Below, piece by piece: positions 1,285 through 35,456 of a stretch of 64,000 nt of DNA. Source of the stretch: Candidatus Poribacteria bacterium. GTDB lineage: Bacteria > Poribacteria > WGA-4E > WGA-3G. Made by a program: the position numbers and the translations under genes. The first letter of the stretch is position 1, and each line of letters starts with the position of its first letter. The stretch is from contig JAJEDB010000018.1 in the NCBI GenBank assembly GCA_022821725.1, positions 30,467-94,466 of the forward strand, given 5' to 3'. The notes under the pieces were generated by a model. That model had not been told where the DNA came from and did no database searches. It was given only the letters and a program-made list of their open reading frames with translations.

Positions 1285-2826
1285 TTAATCCACTTTTTCT
1301 GATTTCAGACTCGTCAAGGCAGTCTTCCCTTTATGCGTCAGGCGGTATTTCTGTAGGCGACTATTGGGTTTATCTGGCAGTGTATATTCAATCATCTGGT
1401 CAGCTAAGAGCGTCCGCACAACCTTATTCAGGGGGCCAGAGATTGCCCTTTGCCCTAAGTTTCTGGACAATTCAGATTTTTGCATTGGACCCTTGGCAAG
1501 TAAGTTTAGTACTCTCGACTTGAGTTCTCTGGGCTGTGACTCTGGTTGTGACTCTGGTTGTGACTCTGGCTGTGACTCTGGCTGTGACTCTGGCTGCACC
1601 TTGATCGGCTCCGGAGGTGTAGCACGCCAGATCGTTGTCTTAAATCCACTGATGTCAGTGAATTCCGGTTCGCGTAAGTTAGCATCCCCGCATCGACGGA
1701 TCATGTCTAACGTTCCTGTCCCCATCTCTTCAATGTATTGAGTGAGGTATAAGGACCGAGCAAGCAATCGGTTGTTGGGTACCGATGGGTGCGTGTCTCG
1801 CAGTTGTTCCAGAGTCAAGGAGGGTGGCAGTCTGCCAGGATTCAATATCTCAAGCCGATCTGAGAAGAGCATCACTTGGACGCTGGCATTACTGGTATAG
1901 TCCCGATGTGCTACGGCGTTGACGATCGCCTCCCTTACAACTTCTTTCGGGATCTCATAGCTAACAGGGGCTTGCACGCTTTCTGCGCGTGTCCCTACCG
2001 ACAGGGCGATCTTGCTAAGCACAAAATCCACGGCTTGATCGACGAGTTGAAATGCTGTGCCCTTGTAGATTTGGTAGGACGGGATGGGTTTCGCAACCTC
2101 TGTTCCATGGAAGTGCGCGCATTTAACCTCCGAGGAAATTAGAAACTGCTGTGGTGCTTTCCCAAATGCCAGCACTGCCGCGTTGGTTGGGCGTCCATCG
2201 TTTAGCAGATTGAGATGAACCAATAACTCTTCGGTTGATACACCTTCAGTTAGCGGAAACTCCCTGGCACTCCGTGCCGTTCGGATAAACCAGCCCATCT
2301 GATCGGTGTCAAGATCATCCAACGATGCTTTTGAACAGGGTGCCGCATCAAAAGGTTCAGAACGGACGAGGTCTTGATTGTCTAAGTATTCGACTAACGC
2401 TGCGTAGAGTGCCGTTATTAACTCTTCCGACGTGTTGAATCGTTTTCGGATGAGTCCGGCTTGTGCCTTACGAATAAGTGCTTGCATCTTCGGTTGCCGA
2501 GCGCTGTCATCTGTCCCTTTTACAAAAATCAGACGATGGATACCGGAAGTGGTTGCCTGATCGAACTCCCGTTCTGTCGGTGATATTCCCTCTGCATCCT
2601 CCGATCCGTAGTCGTTACCGAACAATCCCACATAGACATCCGACTGCTTAACCTCATCCAAATAGAGGTCATCCGGACGACGATCTAATGCCGGAACGTC
2701 TTCAAACAGAAAAACATCAAAGAACCGTCGCATCAACGGATCACTGAGTAGATAGGTGCGTAGTGCCGCGCGTTCCTGCGCTAATTCTCTTTGAACACTG
2801 CTGATAAAAATACGGATAGGGTTCAT
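1285..2826 (-). CDS. DUF4062-type N-domain fused to HATPase_c_4-type putative DNA-binding module and wHTH-like tail
   Basis: 513-aa ORF. N-terminus IFISSVQRELAQER..VYVGLFGNDYG..SPTEREF is DUF4062-like. The C-terminal half has EVVREAIVNAVAHRDYTSN..LEILNPGRLP..YIEEMGTGTLDMIR, typical of the RecG-like/'ATP-binding' regulator family. A PESQ x5 linker separates it from the tail. Confidence 0.8.
   Translation of the reverse strand: MNPIRIFISSVQRELAQERAALRTYLLSDPLMRRFFDVFLFEDVPALDRRPDDLYLDEVKQSDVYVGLFGNDYGSEDAEGISPTEREFDQATTSGIHRLIFVKGTDDSARQPKMQALIRKAQAGLIRKRFNTSEELITALYAALVEYLDNQDLVRSEPFDAAPCSKASLDDLDTDQMGWFIRTARSAREFPLTEGVSTEELLVHLNLLNDGRPTNAAVLAFGKAPQQFLISSEVKCAHFHGTEVAKPIPSYQIYKGTAFQLVDQAVDFVLSKIALSVGTRAESVQAPVSYEIPKEVVREAIVNAVAHRDYTSNASVQVMLFSDRLEILNPGRLPPSLTLEQLRDTHPSVPNNRLLARSLYLTQYIEEMGTGTLDMIRRCGDANLREPEFTDISGFKTTIWRATPPEPIKVQPESQPESQPESQPESQPESQPRELKSRVLNLLAKGPMQKSELSRNLGQRAISGPLNKVVRTLLADQMIEYTLPDKPNSRLQKYRLTHKGKTALTSLKSEKVD
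1535..1594. repeat. 12-nt tandem repeat x5 (TGTGACTCTGGY) encoding PESQ x5
   Basis: Five head-to-tail 12-nt units read directly in the sequence, in frame inside CDS 1285..2826. Confidence 0.9.
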
Positions 2827-8707: not shown

Positions 8708-9241
8708 CTACGGTGCGACTGTGTAGTTTTCGATCGTCACGCTGGTCATAACATCCTGTTCACGGAGGGCATCTACCACATCCATGCCTTCAATAACTTT
8801 CCCAAACGTGGTGTAGCTCCCGTTGAGATGCGCATAAGGTGTTGGATCCGAGTTGATGCAGATATAAAATTGGCTTCCCGCGGAGTCAGGGTTCTGGGTC
8901 CGTGCCATCGCAACAACACCCTTTTCATGAACCGGCATCTTGTCGCGAAGTTCTGGATCTTGGAACTCACCCCGGATTGTCCATCCAGGTCCACCTCTCC
9001 CTGTTCCCTCTGGATCCCCGCCTTGGATAACAAAACCCGGGACGTGTCGATGGAAGATCACACCATTGTAGTATCCTGCTTCGATCAATCTCGCAAAATT
9101 CTCTACTGTGGTTGGAGCCGCTTCTGGGTAAAGTTCAATAATGATGTTTCCTTTTTCGGTTTCAATCGTTACATAAGGCAGTTGATTATTATTACATGAA
9201 ATAACTGCCGCGAAAAACGCGCCTAATAGACTAAATCGCAT
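8708..9241 (-). CDS. Cyclophilin-type peptidyl-prolyl cis-trans isomerase, probable lipoprotein
   Basis: FHRHVPGFVIQGGDPEGTGRGGPG and GVVAMARTQNPDSAGSQFYI. N-terminus MRFSLLGAFFAAVISC carries a lipobox. Confidence 0.9.
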   Translation of the reverse strand: MRFSLLGAFFAAVISCNNNQLPYVTIETEKGNIIIELYPEAAPTTVENFARLIEAGYYNGVIFHRHVPGFVIQGGDPEGTGRGGPGWTIRGEFQDPELRDKMPVHEKGVVAMARTQNPDSAGSQFYICINSDPTPYAHLNGSYTTFGKVIEGMDVVDALREQDVMTSVTIENYTVAP

Positions 9242-9419
9242 AATTTGGGTGTGAAAATTTGGGTGTTTTCACGAATTCCTTTTAGAGTTTTATCAAAGAT
9301 TTCCGACGAGCGTCTGCCGGATAGATAGGTTGAGCAGAAACCACGCACGCGTCGAAAGTTGGTATACATTATACACGGATTCGCGCGTGAAGTCAAGGAG
9401 AATTTTAAAGGGGTTCACC

Positions 9420-9455: not shown

Positions 9456-9482
9456 TAACCCAAGTTGCTACTAACGGGTTTT
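9456..9482 (+). repeat. 27-nt sequence TAACCCAAGTTGCTACTAACGGGTTTT, inverted partner at 30695-30721
   Basis: A 19-nt exact match (TAACCCAAGTTGCTACTAA), and 25 of 27 overall, to the reverse complement of 30695-30721. Confidence 0.85.
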
Positions 9483-9515
9483 GAAGATTTCAAAGAGATC
9501 TTTCAGGGGCTTCCT

Positions 9516-25779: not shown

Positions 25780-26865
25780 CTAAATCTCCGGCACTCTCAC
25801 CGCAACCTCTTTCCCCACGGCATGCGATCGGAAAATACCGTCCATAATCACATTCGTGAGGAGGACACCCTCCGGCGGTATCGGCGAGGGTGCGTCCGCT
25901 TTGACGGCTTCACGGAAGGCTATCATTTGTGCTGCCCAGTTATCTTCCTCTGGGAATCCTGAGAACCGGATCGTCGTCATGCCTTCCGGCGGATTCGGTT
26001 CTCCTGTTAATCCCTCTGATTCCACAAACTTCTTGAGATCCCCCGCATACGCATCGGCGTAGATAACCGGTCCACTCAACGAGAACCCCGCCTTCGTCCC
26101 AAGATGGAAGTTGCCACCGAGTGAATCCTGATGCACTGCCCAAGAGATTTTGAACACCATCACACCGCCGTTTTCAAACCGCACCCACGCCGCACCGAAC
26201 TCTTCAACGTCCATGATACCCCGGAACCTCGGATCTTGCTGTGAGATATAATCCTCAGTAATAGCGGAAACCCGCACAGGTTTCGGATACCCCATCGCAT
26301 ACAGTGAAGCGTGCATGTTATAGACACCGATATCGACGGTCGCACCCGCACCCGCGGTTTTTTTGTAGATGAACGTATGTCCAGGGTTCCCGCGTCGCCT
26401 GCACCCCGCAGATTCGGAATAGTAGATGTCCCCGAATAATCCCGCATCGAACGCCTTTCTGAGGAATTGGAGTCTCGGACTAAACGTCGGATTGAGACCG
26501 ATCTGTAATATCTTGCCTGATGCCTTTGCTGCGCGGGTCATCGCCGTCGCATCGGGAAGCGTCGCTGCCATCGGTTTTTCACAGAGGACGTGTTTCCCGG
26601 CGTTCAGTGCCGCGACTGTCGGTCGTCGGTGCCCCTGATTGTAAGTGCAGACGCTCACCGCGTCGAGGTCGTCCATTTCGAGCATCTTGTTGTAACTTGA
26701 AAACGCGTTCTTTTTCGGGACACCCCACTCTTCAGCAGCTTGGTTCGCCTTACTTTTGATAATGTCGCACACCGCGACGATTTCAAAACCACCGACTTTC
26801 TCATAAGTGCTCTGGTGGGCACGTGAAATGCCACCTGTGCCAATAATACCGACTCGGACCGTCAT
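25780..26865 (-). CDS. Gfo/Idh/MocA family oxidoreductase (paralog 1)
   Basis: MTVRVGIIGTGGISRAH (Rossmann fold), EKPMA. ATG 26865 with GGAG upstream gives 361 aa, the same length as the neighbouring paralog. Confidence 0.9.
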   Translation of the reverse strand: MTVRVGIIGTGGISRAHQSTYEKVGGFEIVAVCDIIKSKANQAAEEWGVPKKNAFSSYNKMLEMDDLDAVSVCTYNQGHRRPTVAALNAGKHVLCEKPMAATLPDATAMTRAAKASGKILQIGLNPTFSPRLQFLRKAFDAGLFGDIYYSESAGCRRRGNPGHTFIYKKTAGAGATVDIGVYNMHASLYAMGYPKPVRVSAITEDYISQQDPRFRGIMDVEEFGAAWVRFENGGVMVFKISWAVHQDSLGGNFHLGTKAGFSLSGPVIYADAYAGDLKKFVESEGLTGEPNPPEGMTTIRFSGFPEEDNWAAQMIAFREAVKADAPSPIPPEGVLLTNVIMDGIFRSHAVGKEVAVRVPEI

Positions 26866-26902
26866 AGTGTTCTCTCCTTCTAACAAATTCACCGAATTAA
26901 AC

Positions 26903-27988
26903 TTAAAGCGCCGGCACGCGCACCGCGACCTCTTTCCCCGATTCCTGTGATCGGAAGATACCGTCCATAATTACGTTTGTAAGGAGGACACCCTCCGGCG
27001 GTATCGGCGACGGGGCATCCGCTAAGACGGCTTCTCGGAACGCGGTTATCTGTGCCTCCCAGACATCGACCTCTGGAAATCCTGAGAATTGGATCGTCGT
27101 CATCCCTTCTGGTGGGTTCGGTGCTGCCGTCAATCCTTCCGATGCCACCAGTTTCTTGAGATCATCTGTATACGCATCGGCATAGACAGCCGGTCCATCC
27201 AACGAGATACCCATTTCTTTACCGAGACAGAAGCTCGGACCGAGCGAATCCTGATGAATCGCCCAAGAGATTTTGAACACCATCACGCTCCCATCTTCAA
27301 ACCTGATCCATGCCACACCGAACTCTTCGACATCCATGATACCCCGGAATTGCGGATCCTGCTGTGAGATGTAATCCTCGGTAATGGCGGAAACTCTCAC
27401 CGGTTTCGGGTACCCCATCGCATACAGTGAATTGTGCATGTTATAGACACCGATGTCTACAATCGCACCCGCCCCTGCTGTCTTTTTATAGATGAACGTG
27501 CGTCCCGGATTCCCGCGGCGTCTGCCCCCCGAGGACTCGGAATAGTAGATATCCCCGAGCAATCCTTCATCGATGACCTTCTTAGCGAATTGGAGTCTCG
27601 GATTGAATGTGCTATGGAGACCGATCTGCAAAATTTTGCCCGACGCTTTCGCTGCACGGGTCATCGCGGTCGCATCAGGAAGGTTTGCCGCCATCGGTTT
27701 TTCACAGAAAACGTGTTTGCCAGCGTTCAGTGCCGCAACCGTTGGACGGCGATGTCCTTGGTTATAGGTACAAACACTCACGGTATCGATCTCATCCATT
27801 TCGAGCATCTTATTGTAGCTGGAGAAGACGTGTTTTCTGGGAACACCCCACTGATCGGCTTTTTCGTTCGCTTTACTTTTGATGATGTCGCACACCGCGA
27901 CGATCTCAAAACCGCCCACTCTCTCGTAGGCTCTCTGATGTGCCCGTGAAATACCGCCTGTGCCAACAATACCGACTCGGATAGTCAT
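26903..27988 (-). CDS. Gfo/Idh/MocA family oxidoreductase (paralog 2)
   Basis: MTIRVGIVGTGGISRAH. Colinear with and highly similar to 25780..26865 along its whole length. Confidence 0.9.
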   Translation of the reverse strand: MTIRVGIVGTGGISRAHQRAYERVGGFEIVAVCDIIKSKANEKADQWGVPRKHVFSSYNKMLEMDEIDTVSVCTYNQGHRRPTVAALNAGKHVFCEKPMAANLPDATAMTRAAKASGKILQIGLHSTFNPRLQFAKKVIDEGLLGDIYYSESSGGRRRGNPGRTFIYKKTAGAGAIVDIGVYNMHNSLYAMGYPKPVRVSAITEDYISQQDPQFRGIMDVEEFGVAWIRFEDGSVMVFKISWAIHQDSLGPSFCLGKEMGISLDGPAVYADAYTDDLKKLVASEGLTAAPNPPEGMTTIQFSGFPEVDVWEAQITAFREAVLADAPSPIPPEGVLLTNVIMDGIFRSQESGKEVAVRVPAL

Positions 27989-28145
27989 ATTCTGTTCTCC
28001 TCGTAATCAGGATTGAATTGCTAAATGAGTTTAGACGAAATCGGTTTGCAATGCAAGCGAAAAATGTGATATACTTCAGGGACATACGAACAATGGGATT
28101 TTGATGGTTTGGTGTTAAGCCCTGTCAAAGAAGGAGATTTTGAAA

Positions 28146-28883
28146 ATGAGGCATCAAGACGAGTGGACCGATGCACAGTGGCACCAAATGGCACAGGCAC
28201 ACGAACTTCAGCGACAGCGACTTCTACAGACCCCCGCACTCCACACCGCTGTCGGGATGTCCTCAGGGACATTCTTTGCCATCTGCGAACTTATCAAAGC
28301 CAGTCACGAAGAACCCGAACACTACGAAACGAACCTGCCTTACTTTTTTTGCCACGGCGACATCGCAACAGATATCCACACGTATCGCCAGCAATACCCA
28401 CATCTTTTTCAAAGTGTGGGGTATGGCGGTGGCGGTTTGATCAAACCGGGGATGACTCGGTGGCAACTTTCTTGGTGTGGGCGGTCTTTTTTTAAGGAAT
28501 ATCCCTATCAGATAGATATTTCTTGGGTTGACGAGAAACTACAAACCCATCTCGATTGTACATGGGATGCATGGATTCAGGGTGTCCCGATGTATATTTT
28601 CGGAACGCTCACCTGCGAGGTCGAAACATACAACACCTTAACGGCAACCTCGTGTTTTATCTATGGTGTGGAAGAAAATCCGCACGAGGCATTTGATCTT
28701 GACGCACACGAAATACCGACAGGACCGAATTTTCAGTTGAAGACAGGGGAGATCGTTGAGGACGGAAAAGAGTATCCCGTCAACTTCAATATAGAGGGTG
28801 ACGCGGGGTTCTATGAGCCGTACAGCGAGATTGATATTATAGACGGATTCATGGGATTGGACGGCACGATCCACAGCCGATAG
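28146..28883 (+). CDS. Hypothetical protein
   Basis: 245-aa ORF with coding-like composition. ATG 28146 lies 9 nt after AGGAG. I recognise no motif. Confidence 0.5.
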   Translation: MRHQDEWTDAQWHQMAQAHELQRQRLLQTPALHTAVGMSSGTFFAICELIKASHEEPEHYETNLPYFFCHGDIATDIHTYRQQYPHLFQSVGYGGGGLIKPGMTRWQLSWCGRSFFKEYPYQIDISWVDEKLQTHLDCTWDAWIQGVPMYIFGTLTCEVETYNTLTATSCFIYGVEENPHEAFDLDAHEIPTGPNFQLKTGEIVEDGKEYPVNFNIEGDAGFYEPYSEIDIIDGFMGLDGTIHSR

Positions 28884-29117
28884 CTGTGCTCGCGATTTTC
28901 TTTTAATGTCCAAAAGTTATAAAATAGGGCTTCCGCAGGATGCTCTTTTGTAGCATAACCTGTTAGGTTGGGTTCTCCCTGAGAACGTCTGTGTTTTTCT
29001 ACACTTCATCCACTAAAGGCGCGTCCTATCGCCAAAATTGCGTCCGTCCTGTAAAACTTAACTATCTTTTGCAACACTATCAAACTGGATCTACCAAAAA
29101 TTAATCCTCTGATAAAT

Positions 29118-29147
29118 TTGACATGTATTTGTATGTTGTGATATACT
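29118..29147 (+). promoter_or_regulatory. Sigma70-like promoter TTGACA-N18-TATACT upstream of dndC
   Basis: Read directly, 72 nt upstream of ATG 29219. Confidence 0.4.
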
Positions 29148-29218
29148 TCTCGTATCAGCGACGAAAGCCAAGCGTTATATTTCCCATATATCCGTCTTCA
29201 TGAGAAGGAACCAGATTT

Positions 29219-30622
29219 ATGGCAGAGACACCCTACAGTATCTTCGACTCACGCACCCCAGACGATATCCATCGCGAAATTCAAGAAGTCTACCTTGAAA
29301 ACGCGCGCCCTTGGGTTATCGGATACAGCGGTGGAAAAGATTCAACGACGGCCCTTCAGCTTATCTGGTATGCCCTCGCTGAACTTCCGCCAGAAAAACG
29401 AAAATACCCAGTCTACGTGATTTCATCCGATACCCTTGTTGAAACGCCGGTAATTGTTAGTTACATTACTGGGACCTTAGACCAAATTGAAGCGAAAGCA
29501 CGCGAAGAAAAAATGCCGTTTCAGACAGACATCGTCCGTCCTAAAGTTGATGATACCTTTTGGGTTAATCTCATTGGCAGGGGTTATCCTGCCCCCTACA
29601 CTCGCTTCAGGTGGTGCACTGACAGGATGAAAATCCGACCAGCGAATCAATTTATCTTAGATAGGGTTGCTGAACACGGTGAAGTTATTATGGTTCTCGG
29701 AGTTCGGAAAGGTGAAAGCACAACGCGTGATCAAGTTCTAAGTTTGCACCGCATGAAAAATTCACTCCTTTCACGACATACGACACTGCCGAATGCTTTT
29801 GTTTATACGCCTGTAGTCGATTTTACTACAGATGATGTCTGGATGTACCTGTTATCCGCAGCATCGCCATGGGGTGGTGATAATAAGCAATTGCTAACGC
29901 TCTACCGCAACACGAACGCACAAGGTGAATGTCCACTTGTCGTTGATGAAACGACGCCTTCTTGTGGAAATAGTCGCTTTGGATGTTGGACCTGCACTGT
30001 CGTCACAAAAGACAAGGCGATGGAGGGACTTATTGATAACGGGGAGGACTGGATGATACCGCTGCTTGAGTTCCGAGATTTTCTCGCGAAAACCCAAAAT
30101 CCTGAGAAGAAACCTGAAATTCGAGAACATCGGCGACGGAACGGACAGATTACGATCCTCAACAATAAACTTGTCCACGGTCCCTATAAACTGGATTTTT
30201 GCAAGGAACTTTTAAGAAGGCTTCTCACGACCCAACAGCAAGTTCGAGAAGCGGGGCCTGACTCGAATATCAAACTCATTACGGATGATGAACTTGAGGA
30301 AATCCGTAAAATCTGGCGAACTGAACGTCAAGATTGGGAAGATGCTGTCCCACAGATTTACGCAGAGATTATTGAAGACCGCGACTGGATCGTTGATGAT
30401 GCTACTTCTTTTACAGAGAAGGATAAAGATATCTTGGCAGCGGTCTGCAGCGAAAAGGGGATCCCTGTCACCCTTGTGGCAAAATTACTCGATACAGAAC
30501 GACAAATGGATGGGATGAGTCGGCGTGCGGGGATACAGTCCCGAATTGACGAAATCTTCCATGAAGACTGGCGTTCAGAACAAGAAGTTCGCTCCGGGCT
30601 GGATAACCCTAATCAACAATGA
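29219..30622 (+). CDS. dndC: DNA phosphorothioation protein DndC (PAPS-reductase-like PP-loop ATPase)
   Basis: WVIGYSGGKDSTTALQLIW (PP-loop SGGKDS), RFRWCTDRMKIRP, VLGVRKGES and SCGNSRFGCWTCTVV (Cys cluster) are all characteristic of DndC. Confidence 0.9.
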   Translation: MAETPYSIFDSRTPDDIHREIQEVYLENARPWVIGYSGGKDSTTALQLIWYALAELPPEKRKYPVYVISSDTLVETPVIVSYITGTLDQIEAKAREEKMPFQTDIVRPKVDDTFWVNLIGRGYPAPYTRFRWCTDRMKIRPANQFILDRVAEHGEVIMVLGVRKGESTTRDQVLSLHRMKNSLLSRHTTLPNAFVYTPVVDFTTDDVWMYLLSAASPWGGDNKQLLTLYRNTNAQGECPLVVDETTPSCGNSRFGCWTCTVVTKDKAMEGLIDNGEDWMIPLLEFRDFLAKTQNPEKKPEIREHRRRNGQITILNNKLVHGPYKLDFCKELLRRLLTTQQQVREAGPDSNIKLITDDELEEIRKIWRTERQDWEDAVPQIYAEIIEDRDWIVDDATSFTEKDKDILAAVCSEKGIPVTLVAKLLDTERQMDGMSRRAGIQSRIDEIFHEDWRSEQEVRSGLDNPNQQ

Positions 30623-30771
30623 TTCTCCACAAACTCACCCTTAACAATGTAGGCTTGTTTCGTGACACACAAACTATCCACCTCACACCGATGCAAAATC
30701 CATTAGTAGCAACTTGGGTTAAAGACTATTCTCTGAATCTGTTTTCGCGGTGCCATGCTAATGCTGCCTGA
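30619..30771 (+). pseudogene. dndD: dndD 5' stub (about 25 native codons, then unrelated sequence)
   Basis: ATGA overlap with the dndC stop. MILHKLTLNNVGLFRDTQTIHLTP resembles the DndD/SMC-like ATPase N-terminus, but it is never followed by the Walker A. Homology ends near 30690-30700, where the 27-nt repeat and the convergent HNH gene begin. Confidence 0.6.
30695..30721 (-). repeat. 27-nt sequence, inverted partner of 9456-9482
   Basis: The reverse complement is TAACCCAAGTTGCTACTAATGGATTTT. It lies immediately 3' of the HNH gene stop, at the dndD break point. Confidence 0.85.
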
Positions 30772-31679
30772 GCTGGATAATGTTCTTTGTTCTCTGGTAC
30801 CAGAATTTTCTTATCCTTCAGTGTCCTAAACTTCCATTCTGAAGGTCCCTTTTCCACCATCAAATCAGAAACTATTATTTTGTAGGTATTCGTAAAAGAG
30901 ATCAACCCTCTGTCAAATCCCCAATGATGGAATTGGCACAGCGAAATTCCATTTCGGACATCGTTATTTCCTGAAATGTTGAATGGAATGATGTGGGCCG
31001 CTTCAGCTACACTTTCGCCATCCAGTGTTAGAACATACGATTGACAAACTGCGCAAGTGTAATCGTAAATTCGCATGATTGCTTGGCGGAAACCTGCTGT
31101 CCGAATTGGATTGTCCGTTTCTGTGAGTGCCAAGGGTTGTAGAGATGAAAATGTTTGTTTGACTTGCTGCAGCAGGGTCTGTCTGTACTCATCAATCTGC
31201 TGTTCTTCAGCTATAAGACTTTCGATATCTGCTTTGAAATCTATGAAATAGGTATCTATAAGGGTTTGGCGGATTACCTCTCGATCATGGGTATTAGTAA
31301 GTAGGAGGAAAAGTTCATCGTCAAAACTGGCATACGCAACAATTTCGCGAAGCCGAGAAACCGTTTTTATTTGCGTGGTAACCCTTAATGCTGTTTCGTA
31401 TCCAGCGTTCGAATGGTGATGCCAGAATCCTTCACTTTTCAAATGGAAAAACGGTAAGGCAAGATTAGGTCTGCGGTCGGTCAATATTGACCAATATTTC
31501 ATAAAAATTTCAAACAAGTTCGGAGAAGGCAGGATTTTATTTTCGAGAATTTGTCCTTGCTCAATCAATTCAATGAGTGCTAATAAAAGGATAGGTTTAT
31601 TAGGAGCTGCACCGTGTGCTCTGTCTACACGCAAGTTTCTGAACTTATTCACATATTTGAGCAGAATATTGCTGACCAT
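30726..31679 (-). CDS. HNH_2-type endonuclease with ~200-aa N-terminal putative DNA/modification-reading domain
   Basis: C-terminus: FRQAIMRIYDYTCAVCQ..AEAAHIIPF..NGISLCQFHHWGFDRGLI. N-terminus: KFRNLRVDRAHGAAPNKPILLLALIELIEQGQ. I use ATG 31679; the ORF-track start at 31748 is TTG and overlaps the upstream gene. Confidence 0.8.
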   Translation of the reverse strand: MVSNILLKYVNKFRNLRVDRAHGAAPNKPILLLALIELIEQGQILENKILPSPNLFEIFMKYWSILTDRRPNLALPFFHLKSEGFWHHHSNAGYETALRVTTQIKTVSRLREIVAYASFDDELFLLLTNTHDREVIRQTLIDTYFIDFKADIESLIAEEQQIDEYRQTLLQQVKQTFSSLQPLALTETDNPIRTAGFRQAIMRIYDYTCAVCQSYVLTLDGESVAEAAHIIPFNISGNNDVRNGISLCQFHHWGFDRGLISFTNTYKIIVSDLMVEKGPSEWKFRTLKDKKILVPENKEHYPAQAALAWHRENRFRE

Positions 31680-31707
31680 GTTTTTAGTGATACTATGGAA
31701 ATATAGG

Positions 31708-32982
31708 TTACAACACTTTTTTGGGCAATTCAACCTTTTCCGTTTCAATGCCTATTGCCTTGGCATAATCCTCACGTAATTTATCTGCATCTTTTTGAAA
31801 ATGATTTAACATATAGAGTTGCAAATTTTTAACGAGCGTTTTACCTTTTATTAACATCTTTTTTTGTGTAGGATGCCAGATGACCCCATGATAAGGCGTT
31901 TGAGTCAGATCTGTAGGTAATTTTGAAATCATCCTGAAACACGTGGATAATGGATACTTCAGCACGAGTTCCGCGATGATTTCTGTTAGGATTTTCAATC
32001 CTATGGGACGGAAAAGGATACTACCGCCCTCTGGATGTCTATACTTCTTGACAATTGTTGAATTGTCAGACATGTTGACGAATTCTTGTAGTGGTAAAAA
32101 ACTCTCTGTAAGTCGCTTAAAATAATCACAAGCATTTTGGTAATGTTCGTCAAGAATGTGATCCGGTTGACGCACTTTTGTGAGTTCATCTTTTCTATCT
32201 GCAAGTCCTTTTTTATTTGATATGACGTATGTTCTCGTAAATAATATTTTCAACAAATCATAGAGATTTCCGATCGTGGTAAGGCAAGTTTGGTTACCCT
32301 GTGGGACATTATCAGTTACATTGTTTAAGATTCGATTCTCCATAAACATTGGATTTTCCGTAACCAGTCTCCGGGCAGTAATGGCCATTGTATCATCTTC
32401 ATCAAGAGCGATTGTCTCTCCTTTGGAAACCCGGACAGCGTTTTTGTTCAATGTTGTGAAAAGTCTTCGGGTTCTTTCCATTCCGTCCGGATCAGTCCTA
32501 TGAGCAATAAAGATTATTGACAACTCATCTTCACCCAAGTGAGGTGCTTCTGCCACTGCTTCTTTAATTCCTATGAGACGGTGTTGTCCATCCAGTGTGA
32601 ATAGTTTTTCTTCACCATTCAAACTAAGAATTCCGATTCCAGCAACCACATCTTCCGGAAATTCTTCACTATCCAATTGATTATTACCCTCTATTCGAGT
32701 AATCTCATGCCAGTTGGGATCGCCTTGATAGACTGCTACAATCAGTGAATTGAAAAAGCGTTGTTCCTGTTTGAGAAGATAGTCTTTTATTTCTTCACCG
32801 CGATTTTCTTTTATTTCTCGCTGGACCATTTCACTCAAGGTTTTACTTTGGTAAATCTCTTCAGCAATCTTGACCCTTTCAGCGATGTCTTTAAGTTTCA
32901 TGAGCGTAGGGTAATATACCCAATCACCCATGATGCCTCTTAGCGACGGAAGATATAATTTTTTCATATCTTGATATACCAT
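31708..32982 (-). CDS. DGQHR-domain protein (DndB/ParB-like family)
   Basis: Literal motif KLFTLDGQHRLIGIKEA. N-terminus SLRGIMGDWVYYPTLMKLKDIAERV is DndB-like. ATG 32982 has AGGAG 5 nt upstream. Confidence 0.85.
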   Translation of the reverse strand: MVYQDMKKLYLPSLRGIMGDWVYYPTLMKLKDIAERVKIAEEIYQSKTLSEMVQREIKENRGEEIKDYLLKQEQRFFNSLIVAVYQGDPNWHEITRIEGNNQLDSEEFPEDVVAGIGILSLNGEEKLFTLDGQHRLIGIKEAVAEAPHLGEDELSIIFIAHRTDPDGMERTRRLFTTLNKNAVRVSKGETIALDEDDTMAITARRLVTENPMFMENRILNNVTDNVPQGNQTCLTTIGNLYDLLKILFTRTYVISNKKGLADRKDELTKVRQPDHILDEHYQNACDYFKRLTESFLPLQEFVNMSDNSTIVKKYRHPEGGSILFRPIGLKILTEIIAELVLKYPLSTCFRMISKLPTDLTQTPYHGVIWHPTQKKMLIKGKTLVKNLQLYMLNHFQKDADKLREDYAKAIGIETEKVELPKKVL

Positions 32983-33010
32983 AACATCTCCTGGCACGGT
33001 TTAAGAGGTA

Positions 33011-33039
33011 AGTTTAACACATTCCACAAAAAAAGTCAA
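33011..33039 (-). promoter_or_regulatory. Sigma70-like promoter TTGACT-N17-TAAACT for the DGQHR-HNH pair
   Basis: Read on the minus strand, about 30 nt upstream of the DGQHR start. Confidence 0.45.
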
Positions 33040-33177
33040 ATTTTCGCCTGATTCTTTCAAAATATAGACCCATAAGACATAATCCAAATCATGTTGAGGT
33101 GAACCCTGACGAAAACAACCGCCCAGCGAGATTGATACGAGACTTCACCAAAACTATTGAACACACCAAAGATACCG

Positions 33178-33230
33178 AAATCCGCGAAATCTGTAAAATC
33201 CGTGTCAATCCGCGATTCAGACAATTAACA
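33178..33230 (+). repeat. ATCCGYG...ATTCAGACAATTAACA repeat family copy
   Basis: AAATCCGCGAAATCTGTAAAATCCGTGTCAATCCGCGATTCAGACAATTAACA. Confidence 0.75.
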
Positions 33231-33268
33231 GAATATTTACATACCCAGAAGAAAAGTCAATTTTTTGT

Positions 33269-33297
33269 TTGACAAATTTCTGAAAAAAATGTAAAAT
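33269..33297 (+). promoter_or_regulatory. Near-consensus sigma70 promoter TTGACA-N17-TAAAAT
   Basis: Read directly. No credible ORF follows for about 500 nt. Confidence 0.55.
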
Positions 33298-33303
33298 AAA
33301 CAT

Positions 33304-33653
33304 ACTGTGAGTGCGATGAAGCATTTCTCAGATACCCAAACGCGATGGATGCGATTAACGCCCTCGCTGCTAAGTTCACTATCGCAACGGCTTCTCTAAG
33401 GGGTAAAGACCATGAACCGTAAGGGTCAAGATGTGAATATTCTTAACACGCCAATGAAACCCGTGCAGCACTGCTGTCTCTGGCCGACAGTGCAAGGTGT
33501 CTTGGTCCGCTGTGTAGTTGCTGTTTCAGGCACTCTGCGGGGTAAACGACACCGCTCTACCCCCCCCCTTATATTTACACACGTTAAGTATAAAATCTCG
33601 CAACCTATTTTACGCAGTTGCGTCAGTGTTTACCGCTGCCGCTGTTTTTTCGC
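33304..33653 (+). ncRNA. Candidate non-coding transcript or long structured leader (class unknown)
   Basis: Bounded by the promoter at 33269-33297 and the terminator at 33654-33690. Several local hairpins are present (GGGGTA..TACCCC, ACGCA-GT-TGCGT). The only long ORFs are Cys/Arg-rich and run through the terminator stem. Confidence 0.3.
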
Positions 33654-33690
33654 GCCTGCGCGTGCATCGCACGCTGCGGGCTGTTTTTGT
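33654..33690 (+). terminator. Rho-independent terminator
   Basis: GCCTGCGCGTGC-ATC-GCACGCTGCGGGC forms a 12-bp stem with one G-U pair and one bulge, followed by TGTTTTTGT. Confidence 0.55.
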
Positions 33691-33812
33691 TAGCATATTG
33701 AGATGTTCCGATAAATGTAAATTGTTGAATATTGGTCATAGTGTTCCTACGTGAGGTTTAACACCCTAAACCTCTTAAACTATTATCTCATGTAATAGGA
33801 GGATCTTTTTAA

Positions 33813-34646
33813 ATGAGATTTTTTATGATTGTTGCTGGCGTGCTATGTGCCGCGACCCTCGCACTCTGGACACCCACAGCCGATGCTGTTCCGAAAGTAG
33901 ATATCTTCATCTACACGGAGATAACGCAGTGGATCGGCCAAGGACAGGCACAAGAACAAGCCGATATATTCATTAAAGAAGTCGATGGCCAAAGAGGTAT
34001 CGGCAAGGTTGTCAATGAGAACGCCAAAGCCATTGAAAAGTGGACGAAGGATCACACCGAGGAAAAAGGCTATCACCTTATTAGCCTCTACGGCGATTTT
34101 CCACCTGAAATCTATGGACAGGGCAATAAAGATGAAGATGGTTCCGTTGCTGAAGAATTCTTGGATGCCGGGAATACCTTCTCAAACAGTGCCGACTATT
34201 TCTTCTGGGGCTTAGCCGGAAGAAACCGTGAAGGTGGACTCCAAAACATGATGGACATTCCAGGTATCGTCCAATGGGATGATGACACAGCAATGAAGGT
34301 CACAAAGGAAGGGAAAGAGTTCACACCGACCCTGAAGGATTATGCCACCGATCGTCCGTTCCACGTGGATCAGCTCGAAAAAACCGATTGGGAAGTGGAG
34401 ATCGCATTTGCGACGGAAACAGGGAAATCCAAGGGGATGAACCGGTGTGACCCTTGCATCATCCGGAATACGAAAACAGACGCACGTCTCATTCAGGTCT
34501 ATCAGACGAATGGCCAAGACGATCCGAAGGGTAAAGTCCTCGCGGAAATTATCCTAAACTATTATCTTGAAGTCATTGGGGCACTCGATGTCGATCCCCA
34601 AGAAAAACTCCCCACATTGTGGGCGGATCTCAAATCCAGGAGGTAA
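33813..34646 (+). CDS. Secreted protein of unknown function (paralog A)
   Basis: Signal peptide MRFFMIVAGVLCAATLALWTPTADA. Blocks shared with paralog B: LYGDFPPEIY, ADYFFWGLAGRNREGGLQNMMDI, WDDDT.MKVT and DRPFH.DQL. GGAGG lies before the ATG. Confidence 0.7.
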   Translation: MRFFMIVAGVLCAATLALWTPTADAVPKVDIFIYTEITQWIGQGQAQEQADIFIKEVDGQRGIGKVVNENAKAIEKWTKDHTEEKGYHLISLYGDFPPEIYGQGNKDEDGSVAEEFLDAGNTFSNSADYFFWGLAGRNREGGLQNMMDIPGIVQWDDDTAMKVTKEGKEFTPTLKDYATDRPFHVDQLEKTDWEVEIAFATETGKSKGMNRCDPCIIRNTKTDARLIQVYQTNGQDDPKGKVLAEIILNYYLEVIGALDVDPQEKLPTLWADLKSRR

Positions 34647-34652
34647 AATTTA

Positions 34653-35456
34653 ATGCGAAATATTTTTCTTTCACTCACCCTGATTGCGTTAATGGCACTC
34701 CCTTTAACGCCCGTACTTGCCGCCGGTGAAGTTGCTATCTATACCGGAATCACGCAATGGATTGGTAAGGCTGAAGCTGATGAACAGGCAGAGATTTGTG
34801 TCGGTATGCTCGAAGATGCGGATATCGCTGTCACGTGGTATGATAGCGATGGCCAAGCCGACGACTTAGCCGCTTGGATGGAAAGTACTACCGGCGACGA
34901 TGGCTTGGATGTCTGTGTCCTCTACGGTGATTTCCCTCCCGAAATCTACCCGGAAGGCAATTCACAGACCGACGGCTCTATCGCTGAAACCTTCATCGAA
35001 ACTACCGATGGCGACGTTTTTATCAACCACGCCGATTATATGTTCTGGGGGTTGTCGGGTAGAAACAGAGAAGGCGGTCTTCAGAACATGATGGATATCG
35101 ACGGCATTGTGATGTGGGACGATGATACACCTATGAAAGTCACGGCAGAAGGCAGTGCCATTTCCCCAAGTCTAACCGACTATGCATCCGACCGTCCGTT
35201 CCACACCGATCAACTCGATGGCGATTGGGAAATTGAAGTTTCTCTCGCACAAAACGACGACGGCACCCGTGCCGATCCGATTATTGTTCGCGATGGCAAC
35301 CTCGGTAGGTTAATTCCAACGATACAGACGAATGGTGGCGATGAACCGAAAGGTGCAATTGCTGCTGAAATTATCGTCTGGCTGATGTCCACAACACCGG
35401 TTGAACCTGCGGGTAAACTCTCCACCACGTGGGGAGATCTGAAAGCAGTTCGATAA
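34653..35456 (+). CDS. Secreted protein of unknown function (paralog B)
   Basis: Signal peptide MRNIFLSLTLIALMALPLTPVLA. It has the same conserved blocks as 33813..34646, and GGAGG lies before the ATG. Confidence 0.7.
   Translation: MRNIFLSLTLIALMALPLTPVLAAGEVAIYTGITQWIGKAEADEQAEICVGMLEDADIAVTWYDSDGQADDLAAWMESTTGDDGLDVCVLYGDFPPEIYPEGNSQTDGSIAETFIETTDGDVFINHADYMFWGLSGRNREGGLQNMMDIDGIVMWDDDTPMKVTAEGSAISPSLTDYASDRPFHTDQLDGDWEIEVSLAQNDDGTRADPIIVRDGNLGRLIPTIQTNGGDEPKGAIAAEIIVWLMSTTPVEPAGKLSTTWGDLKAVR

Follow-up and report, generated by a model that had tools for sequence, protein, structure and literature searches.

A 64,000-nucleotide (nt) stretch of DNA from Candidatus Poribacteria, here called the window, carries the remnant of a dndC-dndD-dndE operon, a writer of phosphorothioate (PT) modification in DNA. 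The remnant lies in a hypervariable island, and its tail has been replaced after codon 24 of dndD: the promoter, dndC and a short dndD stub are left, and they face a convergent gene for a nuclease that combines a sulfur-binding domain (SBD) with an HNH domain (SBD-HNH). The explanation proposed here, which is considered fairly probable as a whole, is that a PT writer was switched for a PT-reading nuclease in a recombination-prone island, with dndC and the stub as leftovers. Candidatus Poribacteria are sponge symbionts, and the closest DndC homologues carry the same name. All coordinates refer to the window, and the loci of relatives are numbered L001 to L097. The central features are the following:

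29118 to 29147, forward strand: promoter TTGACA-N18-TATACT with TG extension, 11/12 positions in a sigma-70-type consensus scan
29219 to 30622, forward strand: dndC, 467 amino acids (aa), a PP-loop / PAPS-reductase-type sulfurtransferase without internal stop
30619 to 30690, forward strand: dndD remnant of 24 codons, in a 50-codon open reading frame (ORF) reading on to 30771
30693 to 30720, forward strand: 28-nt repeat CAAAATCCATTAGTAGCAACTTGGGTTA, located precisely at the breakpoint, with the dndD stub on one side of it and the 3' end of the HNH gene on the other
30726 to 31679, reverse strand: SBD-HNH gene, 317 aa from its conserved start, convergent to dndC, encoding a sulfur-binding winged-helix domain plus HNH
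31708 to 32982, reverse strand: gene for a DGQHR / DndB-like protein of the ParB superfamily, upstream of and co-oriented with the SBD-HNH gene

The first gene of the remnant is intact, as had been read from its motifs. The dndC product reaches 572 bits with TIGR03183 (DndC; cut-off 290) and 651 bits with NF005316 (cut-off 536), matches the PADLOC DndC model at 1e-202, with a weak SspD match as well, and contains a PF01507 domain (aa 33-215) and a fused C-terminal Sp-DndD domain (PF20306, aa 402-447). Its translation includes SGGKDS, RFRWCTDRMKIRP and the Cys cluster GECPL/PSCGN/FGCWTC. To judge from these matches, it is a full-length, bona fide DndC; a sequence search returned no solved structure for DndC or for the DGQHR protein. 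The TGA stop codon of dndC overlaps the start codon of dndD as ATGA at 30619-30622, as predicted, and the same overlap is found in most intact operons. The promoter hexamers are likewise kept in intact and truncated dnd loci, around a variable spacer. Since both traits are common to intact and truncated loci, they are ancestral operon features: the promoter that had been assigned to dndC is present, but it is the promoter of the ancestral dnd operon rather than dndC's own.

Relatives with an uninterrupted operon at the same chromosomal site bear out the original prediction that the dndD ORF is a truncated gene. L003 (6.04 Mb) encodes dndC (468 aa), dndD (670 aa) and dndE (120 aa) at this site, and shares with the window the upstream genes for a CoA-transferase, an S9 peptidase, a UPF0020 methyltransferase and two GFO_IDH proteins; the dndC-dndD-dndE operon is also present in L004 and L005. 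At the DNA level, the window is homologous to intact operons from 29048 up to 30689-30691 and no further. Stub codons 1-24 share 88-92% identity with the first 24 DndD residues of L003 and L004 (tblastn, E ~6e-8), and the stub matches positions 1-27 of TIGR03185 (E 0.0018). The breakpoint is close to the predicted ~25 codons and precedes by two codons the stretch leading into the Walker A motif GGMNGAGKT, so that Walker A/B, the coiled coil and the ~670 aa of a DndD are not reached. Because homology to intact dndD stops after codon 24, the stub is a genuine dndD remnant and not a DndD. Two details of the prediction need correction: the ORF does end at 30771, but the repeat that it crosses has 28 nt and not 27, and the term 'decapitated' is wrong, as the promoter and first gene survive and the tail is lost. 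The predicted absence of dndE and of the rest of dndD was confirmed, as tblastn found no further DndD or DndE in the 64-kb window. Among the best 25 families per library, scans of the 49 window ORFs returned no Dnd-family protein beyond DndC and the DndB-like DGQHR protein, and no strong cysteine desulfurase.

As the window is part of a 103.7-kb metagenome scaffold (L001), the junction could have arisen as a chimeric assembly join. The chance of this is negligible: the locus is identical in two assemblies (L001, L002; ENA scaffold, Logan contig), the same junction occurs in an unrelated metagenome-assembled genome (MAG) of another study, L008, where 4/107 positions of stub and spacer differ (window 30619-30725, L008 11401-11507), and analogous junctions are present in long-read chromosomes. 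The 28-nt repeat at the breakpoint has a second, inverted copy with 3 mismatches at 9457-9484 (reverse strand), in an unrelated intergenic region; none would be expected by chance, and this partner is 21 kb away, not at the other end of the cassette. The repeat is also found at the L008 junction, at L016 9698-9725 and at L025 9504-9531; in L016 and L025, which have intact operons, it precedes dndC by ~300-500 nt. Possible identities are a dispersed short repeat and a site of recombination or regulation. Transposition via repeats flanking the cassette was considered and rejected, as direct and inverted matches within 28000-34500 are short and at chance level only. A mobile-element origin was rejected as well, as viral contigs contain no close relative of dndC or of the SBD-HNH gene.

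The gene that took the place of the operon tail had been described as an HNH gene, which is correct but overlooks the sulfur-binding domain. The N-terminal half of its product matches SBD_Hga (PDB 8H0L) with E 5e-21 over 140 aligned residues (aa 29-168 of the 340-aa ORF), and the C-terminus matches PF13391 (E 3.7e-11). NF045808, 'phosphorothioated DNA-binding restriction endonuclease', is matched with 131 bits across profile positions 7-284 of 284, and PF26340 (DNA-SBD_ScoMcrA) is recorded, together with PF13391, on close homologues that are 84-93% identical. The HNH motif AAHIIPF...RNGISLC...HHWGFD is intact and aligned across 25 homologues. Taken together, the SBD, NF045808, PF26340 and HNH matches identify a homologue of PT-dependent type IV restriction enzymes, and by homology the protein is a putative PT-dependent type IV restriction endonuclease. 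The sulfur cavity of SBD_Hga is lined by H25, K26, L75, P76 and H79 (PMC10602919); the corresponding residues of the window enzyme are N-K-L-P-H, i.e., 4/5 are kept. That the HNH protein carries an SBD provides a mechanistic reason for the deletion.

A DndC scan of the genome collection yielded 79 loci, ~45 of them from Poribacteria species representatives; these loci were screened with DndD, DndE, SBD-HNH and DGQHR queries, and loci from contig look-ups were added. Among the 50 Poribacteria dnd loci surveyed (19 with SBD-HNH, 31 with intact dndCDE), intact dndE is missing in all 19 with an SBD-HNH gene, and SBD-HNH is found within 10 kb of none of the 31 with intact dndE (uncorrected Fisher p ~3e-14, calculated by hand as 1/C(50,19), for loci that are phylogenetically non-independent). 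The 19 loci fall into two classes:

SBD-HNH with dndD stub only (n=7): window, L007, L008, L011, L020, L044, L094
SBD-HNH with dndC and dndD, dndE missing or truncated (n=12): L009, L010, L012, L013, L018, L021, L027, L038, L042, L045, L059, L096

Breakpoints are located at codons 13, 20, 24 and ~62 of dndD, and at codons ~9, 14, 15-19, 23, 36, 49 and 73 of dndE; so varied a set of junctions implies 11 or more separate events. Outside the phylum, one locus of Anaerolineae (L055) and one of Bacteroidota (L073) show the same pattern. The sole SBD homologue found beside an intact dndCDE operon, in L049, lacks the HNH domain; it is an SBD-only ORF of 193 aa (8734-9288) upstream of the operon. Three extra contigs were chosen on the ground that DndC and SBD-HNH matches lay on contigs of one length, and the prediction of exclusion was then checked on them: L094 and L096 lack dndE, and L095 has intact dndCDE and no SBD-HNH. 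At L096 13563-16987, dndC-dndD is followed by SMODS and SLATT genes, a convergent SBD-HNH gene and a ParB_N gene. An apparent counter-example, DndC P0027 and SBD-HNH P0200 on one 73,696-nt contig, was discarded, as the two proteins are really encoded on different contigs of equal length. The comparative pattern suggests that one cell cannot hold both a functional PT writer and a PT-dependent nuclease.

The original prediction attributed the loss, as one of two possibilities, to the arrival of a combined DGQHR/HNH cassette. Truncation and replacement by the HNH gene stand, but the DGQHR gene did not necessarily arrive with it. Its product scores 119.6 bits against TIGR03187 (cut-off 58.85) and matches PF14072 (E 2e-34); against TIGR03233 (DndB) it reaches 73.8 bits, below the cut-off of 328, and the gene is downstream of and convergent to dndC, not divergent upstream like DndB. 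The same gene occurs, without any HNH gene, right behind dndE in L023 and L095, and at a greater distance from it in L019. The gene may therefore be a resident of the locus and not a part of the incoming cassette, and it may have served as the right-hand homology arm for the exchange. The window SBD-HNH gene itself is a chimera of an 'HNHa' body with the last ~6 codons of its tandem paralogue 'HNHb' (30726-30790): the product ends in WHRENRFRE, as in HNHb, compared with WHREHVFKR in the HNHa of L087. The 3' flank is probably also of the HNHb type, given the junction shared with L008. An HNHa body with an HNHb end points to a deletion by recombination between the tandem paralogues.

Look-ups seeded with SBD-HNH homologues, which are unbiased as to dndC, revealed an end state in which dndC is gone. 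L087-L092 have the same flanks and no dndC; they contain GIY-YIG, DGQHR, SBD-HNHa and SBD-HNHb genes, and their SBD-HNHa proteins are 93% and 82% identical to that of the window at the aa level. Flank identity to the window is 94-95.5% for L087 and ~84-89% for L090. L093 and L097 have SBD-HNH alone and no dnd gene. L008, a relative at ~95% identity, shares the 24-codon stub and the 28-nt repeat, and there they adjoin HNHb. Three successive states thus appear, from sequence comparison, to be visible in one clade at ~95% identity:

State 1, L008: dndC-stub-HNHb; the contig ends within HNHb, and an HNHa-DGQHR continuation is presumed
State 2, the window: dndC-stub-HNHa/b-DGQHR
State 3, L087: HNHb-HNHa-DGQHR

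The gene dndC is dispensable, as sister genomes have lost it entirely.

In the resulting scenario, the SBD-HNH enzyme would read the sulfur mark via its SBD and cut via its HNH domain. Because the enzyme would cut PT-DNA, viable recombinants would be those in which PT writing is abolished, and the survivors would have gained the nuclease and lost dndE, or dndD and dndE, in the same event. The exchange probably took place by homologous recombination, with dndC/dndD as the left arm and DGQHR or the right flank as the right arm. PT writing from this locus would be abolished in this genome, and the polarity of defence would have flipped from 'mark self with PT' to 'cut PT-marked invaders'. The promoter, dndC and the 24-codon stub would remain as a transcribed leftover that runs convergently into the nuclease gene. 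The least certain step is that these leftovers would be intact through a young allele or repeated refreshing, and not through DndC acting alone.

Several observations weigh against this explanation. The surveyed loci are not phylogenetically independent, as stated above. The NF045808 score of 131 is below the curated cut-off of 180, and the key cavity His (H25 of SBD_Hga) is Asn in the window enzyme; PT dependence of this nuclease is therefore not assured. The Asn variant is conserved in the clade of the window enzyme, Tyr is found in the tandem HNHb type, and His in other paralogues. SBD-HNH genes evolve fast, with a dN/dS ratio (omega) of 0.2-0.33 compared with 0.02-0.1 in flanking genes; cavity variation and fast evolution may reflect a diversifying reader specificity. 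If the enzyme does not depend on PT, the island might simply be a hot spot where cassettes swap at one site, and the exclusivity would reflect limited space or a common insertion site. Many unrelated cassettes do occupy the island. However, SNF2, ParB-like, SMC-like and 'dnd_assoc_4' genes coexist with intact dndCDE, such cassettes being placed downstream of dndE, where SBD-HNH never is (0/31 vs 19/19); many Poribacteria SBD-HNH genes beside dnd remnants retain the canonical cavity His; the nuclease is missing from the single SBD protein next to an intact operon; and the events in two other phyla are independent. A hot-spot coincidence is thus quite unlikely.

The condition of dndC adds to the objections. 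It is an uninterrupted ORF in 19/19 remnant loci. Between the window and L008, which share the junction, dndC nevertheless has dN 0.023 and dS 0.50 (0.32-0.62), i.e., omega 0.046. The probability that a neutral ORF of 1.4 kb is still open after 138 random substitutions is ~0.005. Median dndC omega is 0.057 for truncated-truncated, 0.095 for mixed and 0.075 for intact-intact pairs, and dndD is unrelaxed in dndE-less loci (0.138 vs 0.172). An open and constrained dndC looks like selection. Breakpoints are non-random and bimodal as well, with none in dndC or in dndD codons 63-670, a hint that selection acts on genes as wholes or disfavours a partial DndD; the bimodality may reflect toxicity of partial DndD.

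The use of dN/dS as proof that the orphan dndC functions was nevertheless rejected, as the dating assumption behind it fails through recombination. Flanking genes of the window and L008 have a dS of 0.17-0.25, and dndC dS is ~2x flank dS in all comparisons, intact operons included. L009 and L013 share a nearly identical junction, yet their dndC dS is 0.66, and in L009, L013 and L059 the SBD-HNH cassette is 90-95% identical vs 78-90% for the backbone. Window and L008 are 96-97% identical in the stub vs ~89-92% in dndC, and 19/132 positions differ in the non-coding DNA upstream of dndC; the near-identity of stub and spacer reflects constraint acting locally or, alternatively, a narrow tract that recombined recently. 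Homologous recombination evidently carries alleles of cassette plus junction from one lineage to another. Because junctions and cassettes are more alike between lineages than the backbone is, a shared junction does not date the truncation, and a stub-attached dndC may for most of its past have belonged to an intact operon, or may have been refreshed from intact haplotypes. Hence, dndC is either a young or recombination-refreshed relic or still functional, and the balance tips slightly towards a relic.

Were dndC still functional, the system might be split, the second possibility of the original prediction: DndC would work with partners and a desulfurase encoded elsewhere, in making PT or in another sulfur or adenylation reaction, and SBD-HNH would have another, or a non-PT, specificity. 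The intact gene, its conserved promoter, the low omega without relaxation in any truncated class, the dndC frame kept open in 19/19 remnant loci and the His-to-Asn exchange, which could change what the SBD reads, would all fit. On the other hand, DndD, DndE and a desulfurase were not found in the 64 kb, genomes at ~95% identity have cleanly deleted dndC, and the genome scan, which was not designed for dndD/dndE, gave no second dndC locus for any species representative bearing SBD-HNH. A split functional system is therefore regarded as unlikely.

Another alternative takes the neighbours as partners. DndC (or DndC and DndD in dndE-less loci), SBD-HNH and DGQHR could form a cooperative, Ssp-like variant in which the nuclease replaces DndE; by analogy, DndC would take the part of SspD, the winged helix-turn-helix (wHTH)-HNH protein that of the nickase SspB, DndD that of the ATPase SspC, and DGQHR that of the N-terminal domain of SspE. 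The Ssp analogy has been drawn before (PMC10853773), dndC and dndD are intact and constrained in dndE-less loci, breakpoints respect gene boundaries, and in L021 the SBD-HNH ORF comes after the dndE stub in the same orientation. However, no ATPase at all is encoded in the window, SBD-HNH and dndC converge in almost every locus, L087-L093 and L097 have the same SBD-HNH genes without any dnd gene, and SBDs bind the PT product and not unmodified DNA (PMC6224610). In addition, dndD is frameshifted in 2/11 of the dndE-less loci screened (L027, L038) vs 1-2/31 intact loci. The split genes lie at L027 11401-13406 and L038 11401-13405, and at L040 11407-13412 in an intact operon; as all three are long-read MAG assemblies, sequencing error and real dndD decay are inseparable there. 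A cooperative module of this kind is very unlikely. The broader idea that dndC (with or without dndD) is selected for cooperation with SBD-HNH and DGQHR, or that DndC controls or licenses the nuclease in an undescribed PT-related module, is hardly more probable.

Published work bears on the preferred explanation, the switch from PT writer to reader nuclease, in both directions. Lutz et al. (2020) predicted the incompatibility of SBD-HNH and dnd, found <3.6% of PT-dependent enzymes near dnd clusters and proposed that the rare co-localised clusters might be mutated (PMC7461809); the window is exactly such a mutated, co-localised cluster. Beyond that study, the present comparison resolves a repeated replacement of dndE or dndDE to the breakpoint, at one chromosomal site and in a single phylum. 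SBD homologues also restrict the transfer of dnd clusters in vivo (PMC6224610). Krishnan et al. (2024), in contrast, described SBD+SRA+HNH proteins inside dnd loci of 698 taxa and viewed them as cooperating restriction partners (PMC10853773), so that antagonism is not universal, a further point against exclusion as a general rule. For the two-domain SBD-HNH type, the comparison of Poribacteria loci supports exclusion. Titles and abstracts that mention both Poribacteria and phosphorothioation include none about this replacement pattern.

The locus shares several traits with the DndABCDE system of the S. lividans / Salmonella Cerro 87 type: TIGR03183 clearly identifies dndC as an equivalog, syntenic relatives show the order dndC-dndD-dndE with overlapping stop and start codons, and a DndB-like DGQHR gene is associated with the locus. 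In contrast to that system, only dndC and 24 dndD codons are present in the window, which holds no dndE or dndA, the DGQHR gene is downstream, convergent and below the DndB equivalog cut-off, and DndC has a fused Sp-DndD domain. The nuclease resembles the SBD-HNH type IV enzymes SprMcrA and EcoWI in its two-domain SBD + HNH_2 architecture of ~317 aa and in the conserved cavity residues (L-P-x-x-H and K) and HNH motif, and departs from them in the cavity Asn, the score below the NCBIfam cut-off and its operon with DGQHR. Among reference enzymes, ScoMcrA adds an SRA domain, and Hga combines an SBD with a PD-(D/E)XK nuclease. With its PP-loop enzyme akin to DndC, its ParB-like NTPase of the DGQ(H/Q)R kind and its HNH-type nuclease, the locus recalls SspD and the two domains of SspE in SspABCD-SspE. 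Unlike that system, the window has no SspB or SspC equivalents and no homology-based SspE match, DGQHR and nuclease are separate proteins, and the nuclease carries an SBD.

The extent of the island follows from dndC-less relatives, which keep both flanks around other contents:

28067 to 33794, no strand assigned: variable defence island; homology to the flanks of L087, L090 and L093 breaks off at its left edge and returns at its right edge
Ending at ~28066: left flank, the GFO_IDH_MocA pair
From ~33795: right flank, 277/267-aa paralogues, FGE-sulfatase, PQQ and M16 peptidase genes
28140 to 28883, forward strand: 247-aa ORF, a second variable slot between the GFO_IDH genes and dndC

Contents differ between the same flank genes in L003, L005, L007 and L087-L097, and the cassettes found across relatives include PIN, SLFN, SMODS/SLATT, SNF2, ParB-like and GIY-YIG genes. 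The 247-aa ORF has no NCBIfam, Pfam or PADLOC match; its slot is filled in relatives by a 585-602-aa gene (213 aa in L007/L094) and a PIN-domain gene. PADLOC recognizes only DndC, a DndB-like protein and a generic HNH among the island genes. A GIY-YIG gene (167 aa; L087 6204-6707) lies directly upstream of DGQHR in L087-L092 and L094 and is precisely absent from window positions 32983-33794. On the left, the tandem GFO_IDH_MocA oxidoreductase paralogues (25780-26892 and 26903-27988, reverse strand) are ~80% identical at the nt level and vary from 1 to 3 copies among relatives. On the right, the tandem paralogues of 277 and 267 aa (33813-34646 and 34653-35456, forward strand) belong to no family. 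Elsewhere, the window encodes type I restriction-modification methyltransferase and specificity subunits (ORFs not located), which match the MADS models mad2, mad3 and mad8, and a DUF4062 + HATPase_c_4 + Fic-like_C protein (1288-2826, reverse strand) that matches Argonaute-associated models. This suggests a second defence cluster, composed of type I restriction-modification/MADS-like genes and the DUF4062 protein.

The genes of the locus belong to known families; what the comparison adds is the identity of the nuclease and the recurrent replacement of writer by reader. Published evidence for exclusion consists mostly of plasmid-transformation assays and coarse co-occurrence statistics, and the recent survey argues for cooperation. 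The window and its relatives amount to a natural experiment, at breakpoint resolution, on the exclusion between PT writer and nuclease. The natural cavity variants with His, Asn and Tyr offer a set for studies of SBD specificity, and the persistence of an intact dndC poses the small question of the life of DndC outside the DndCDE complex. If the cooperative reading were true, the locus would be a new system and not a wreck. For the sponge symbionts themselves, the preferred explanation predicts that PT should be present in dndCDE haplotypes and absent from SBD-HNH haplotypes.

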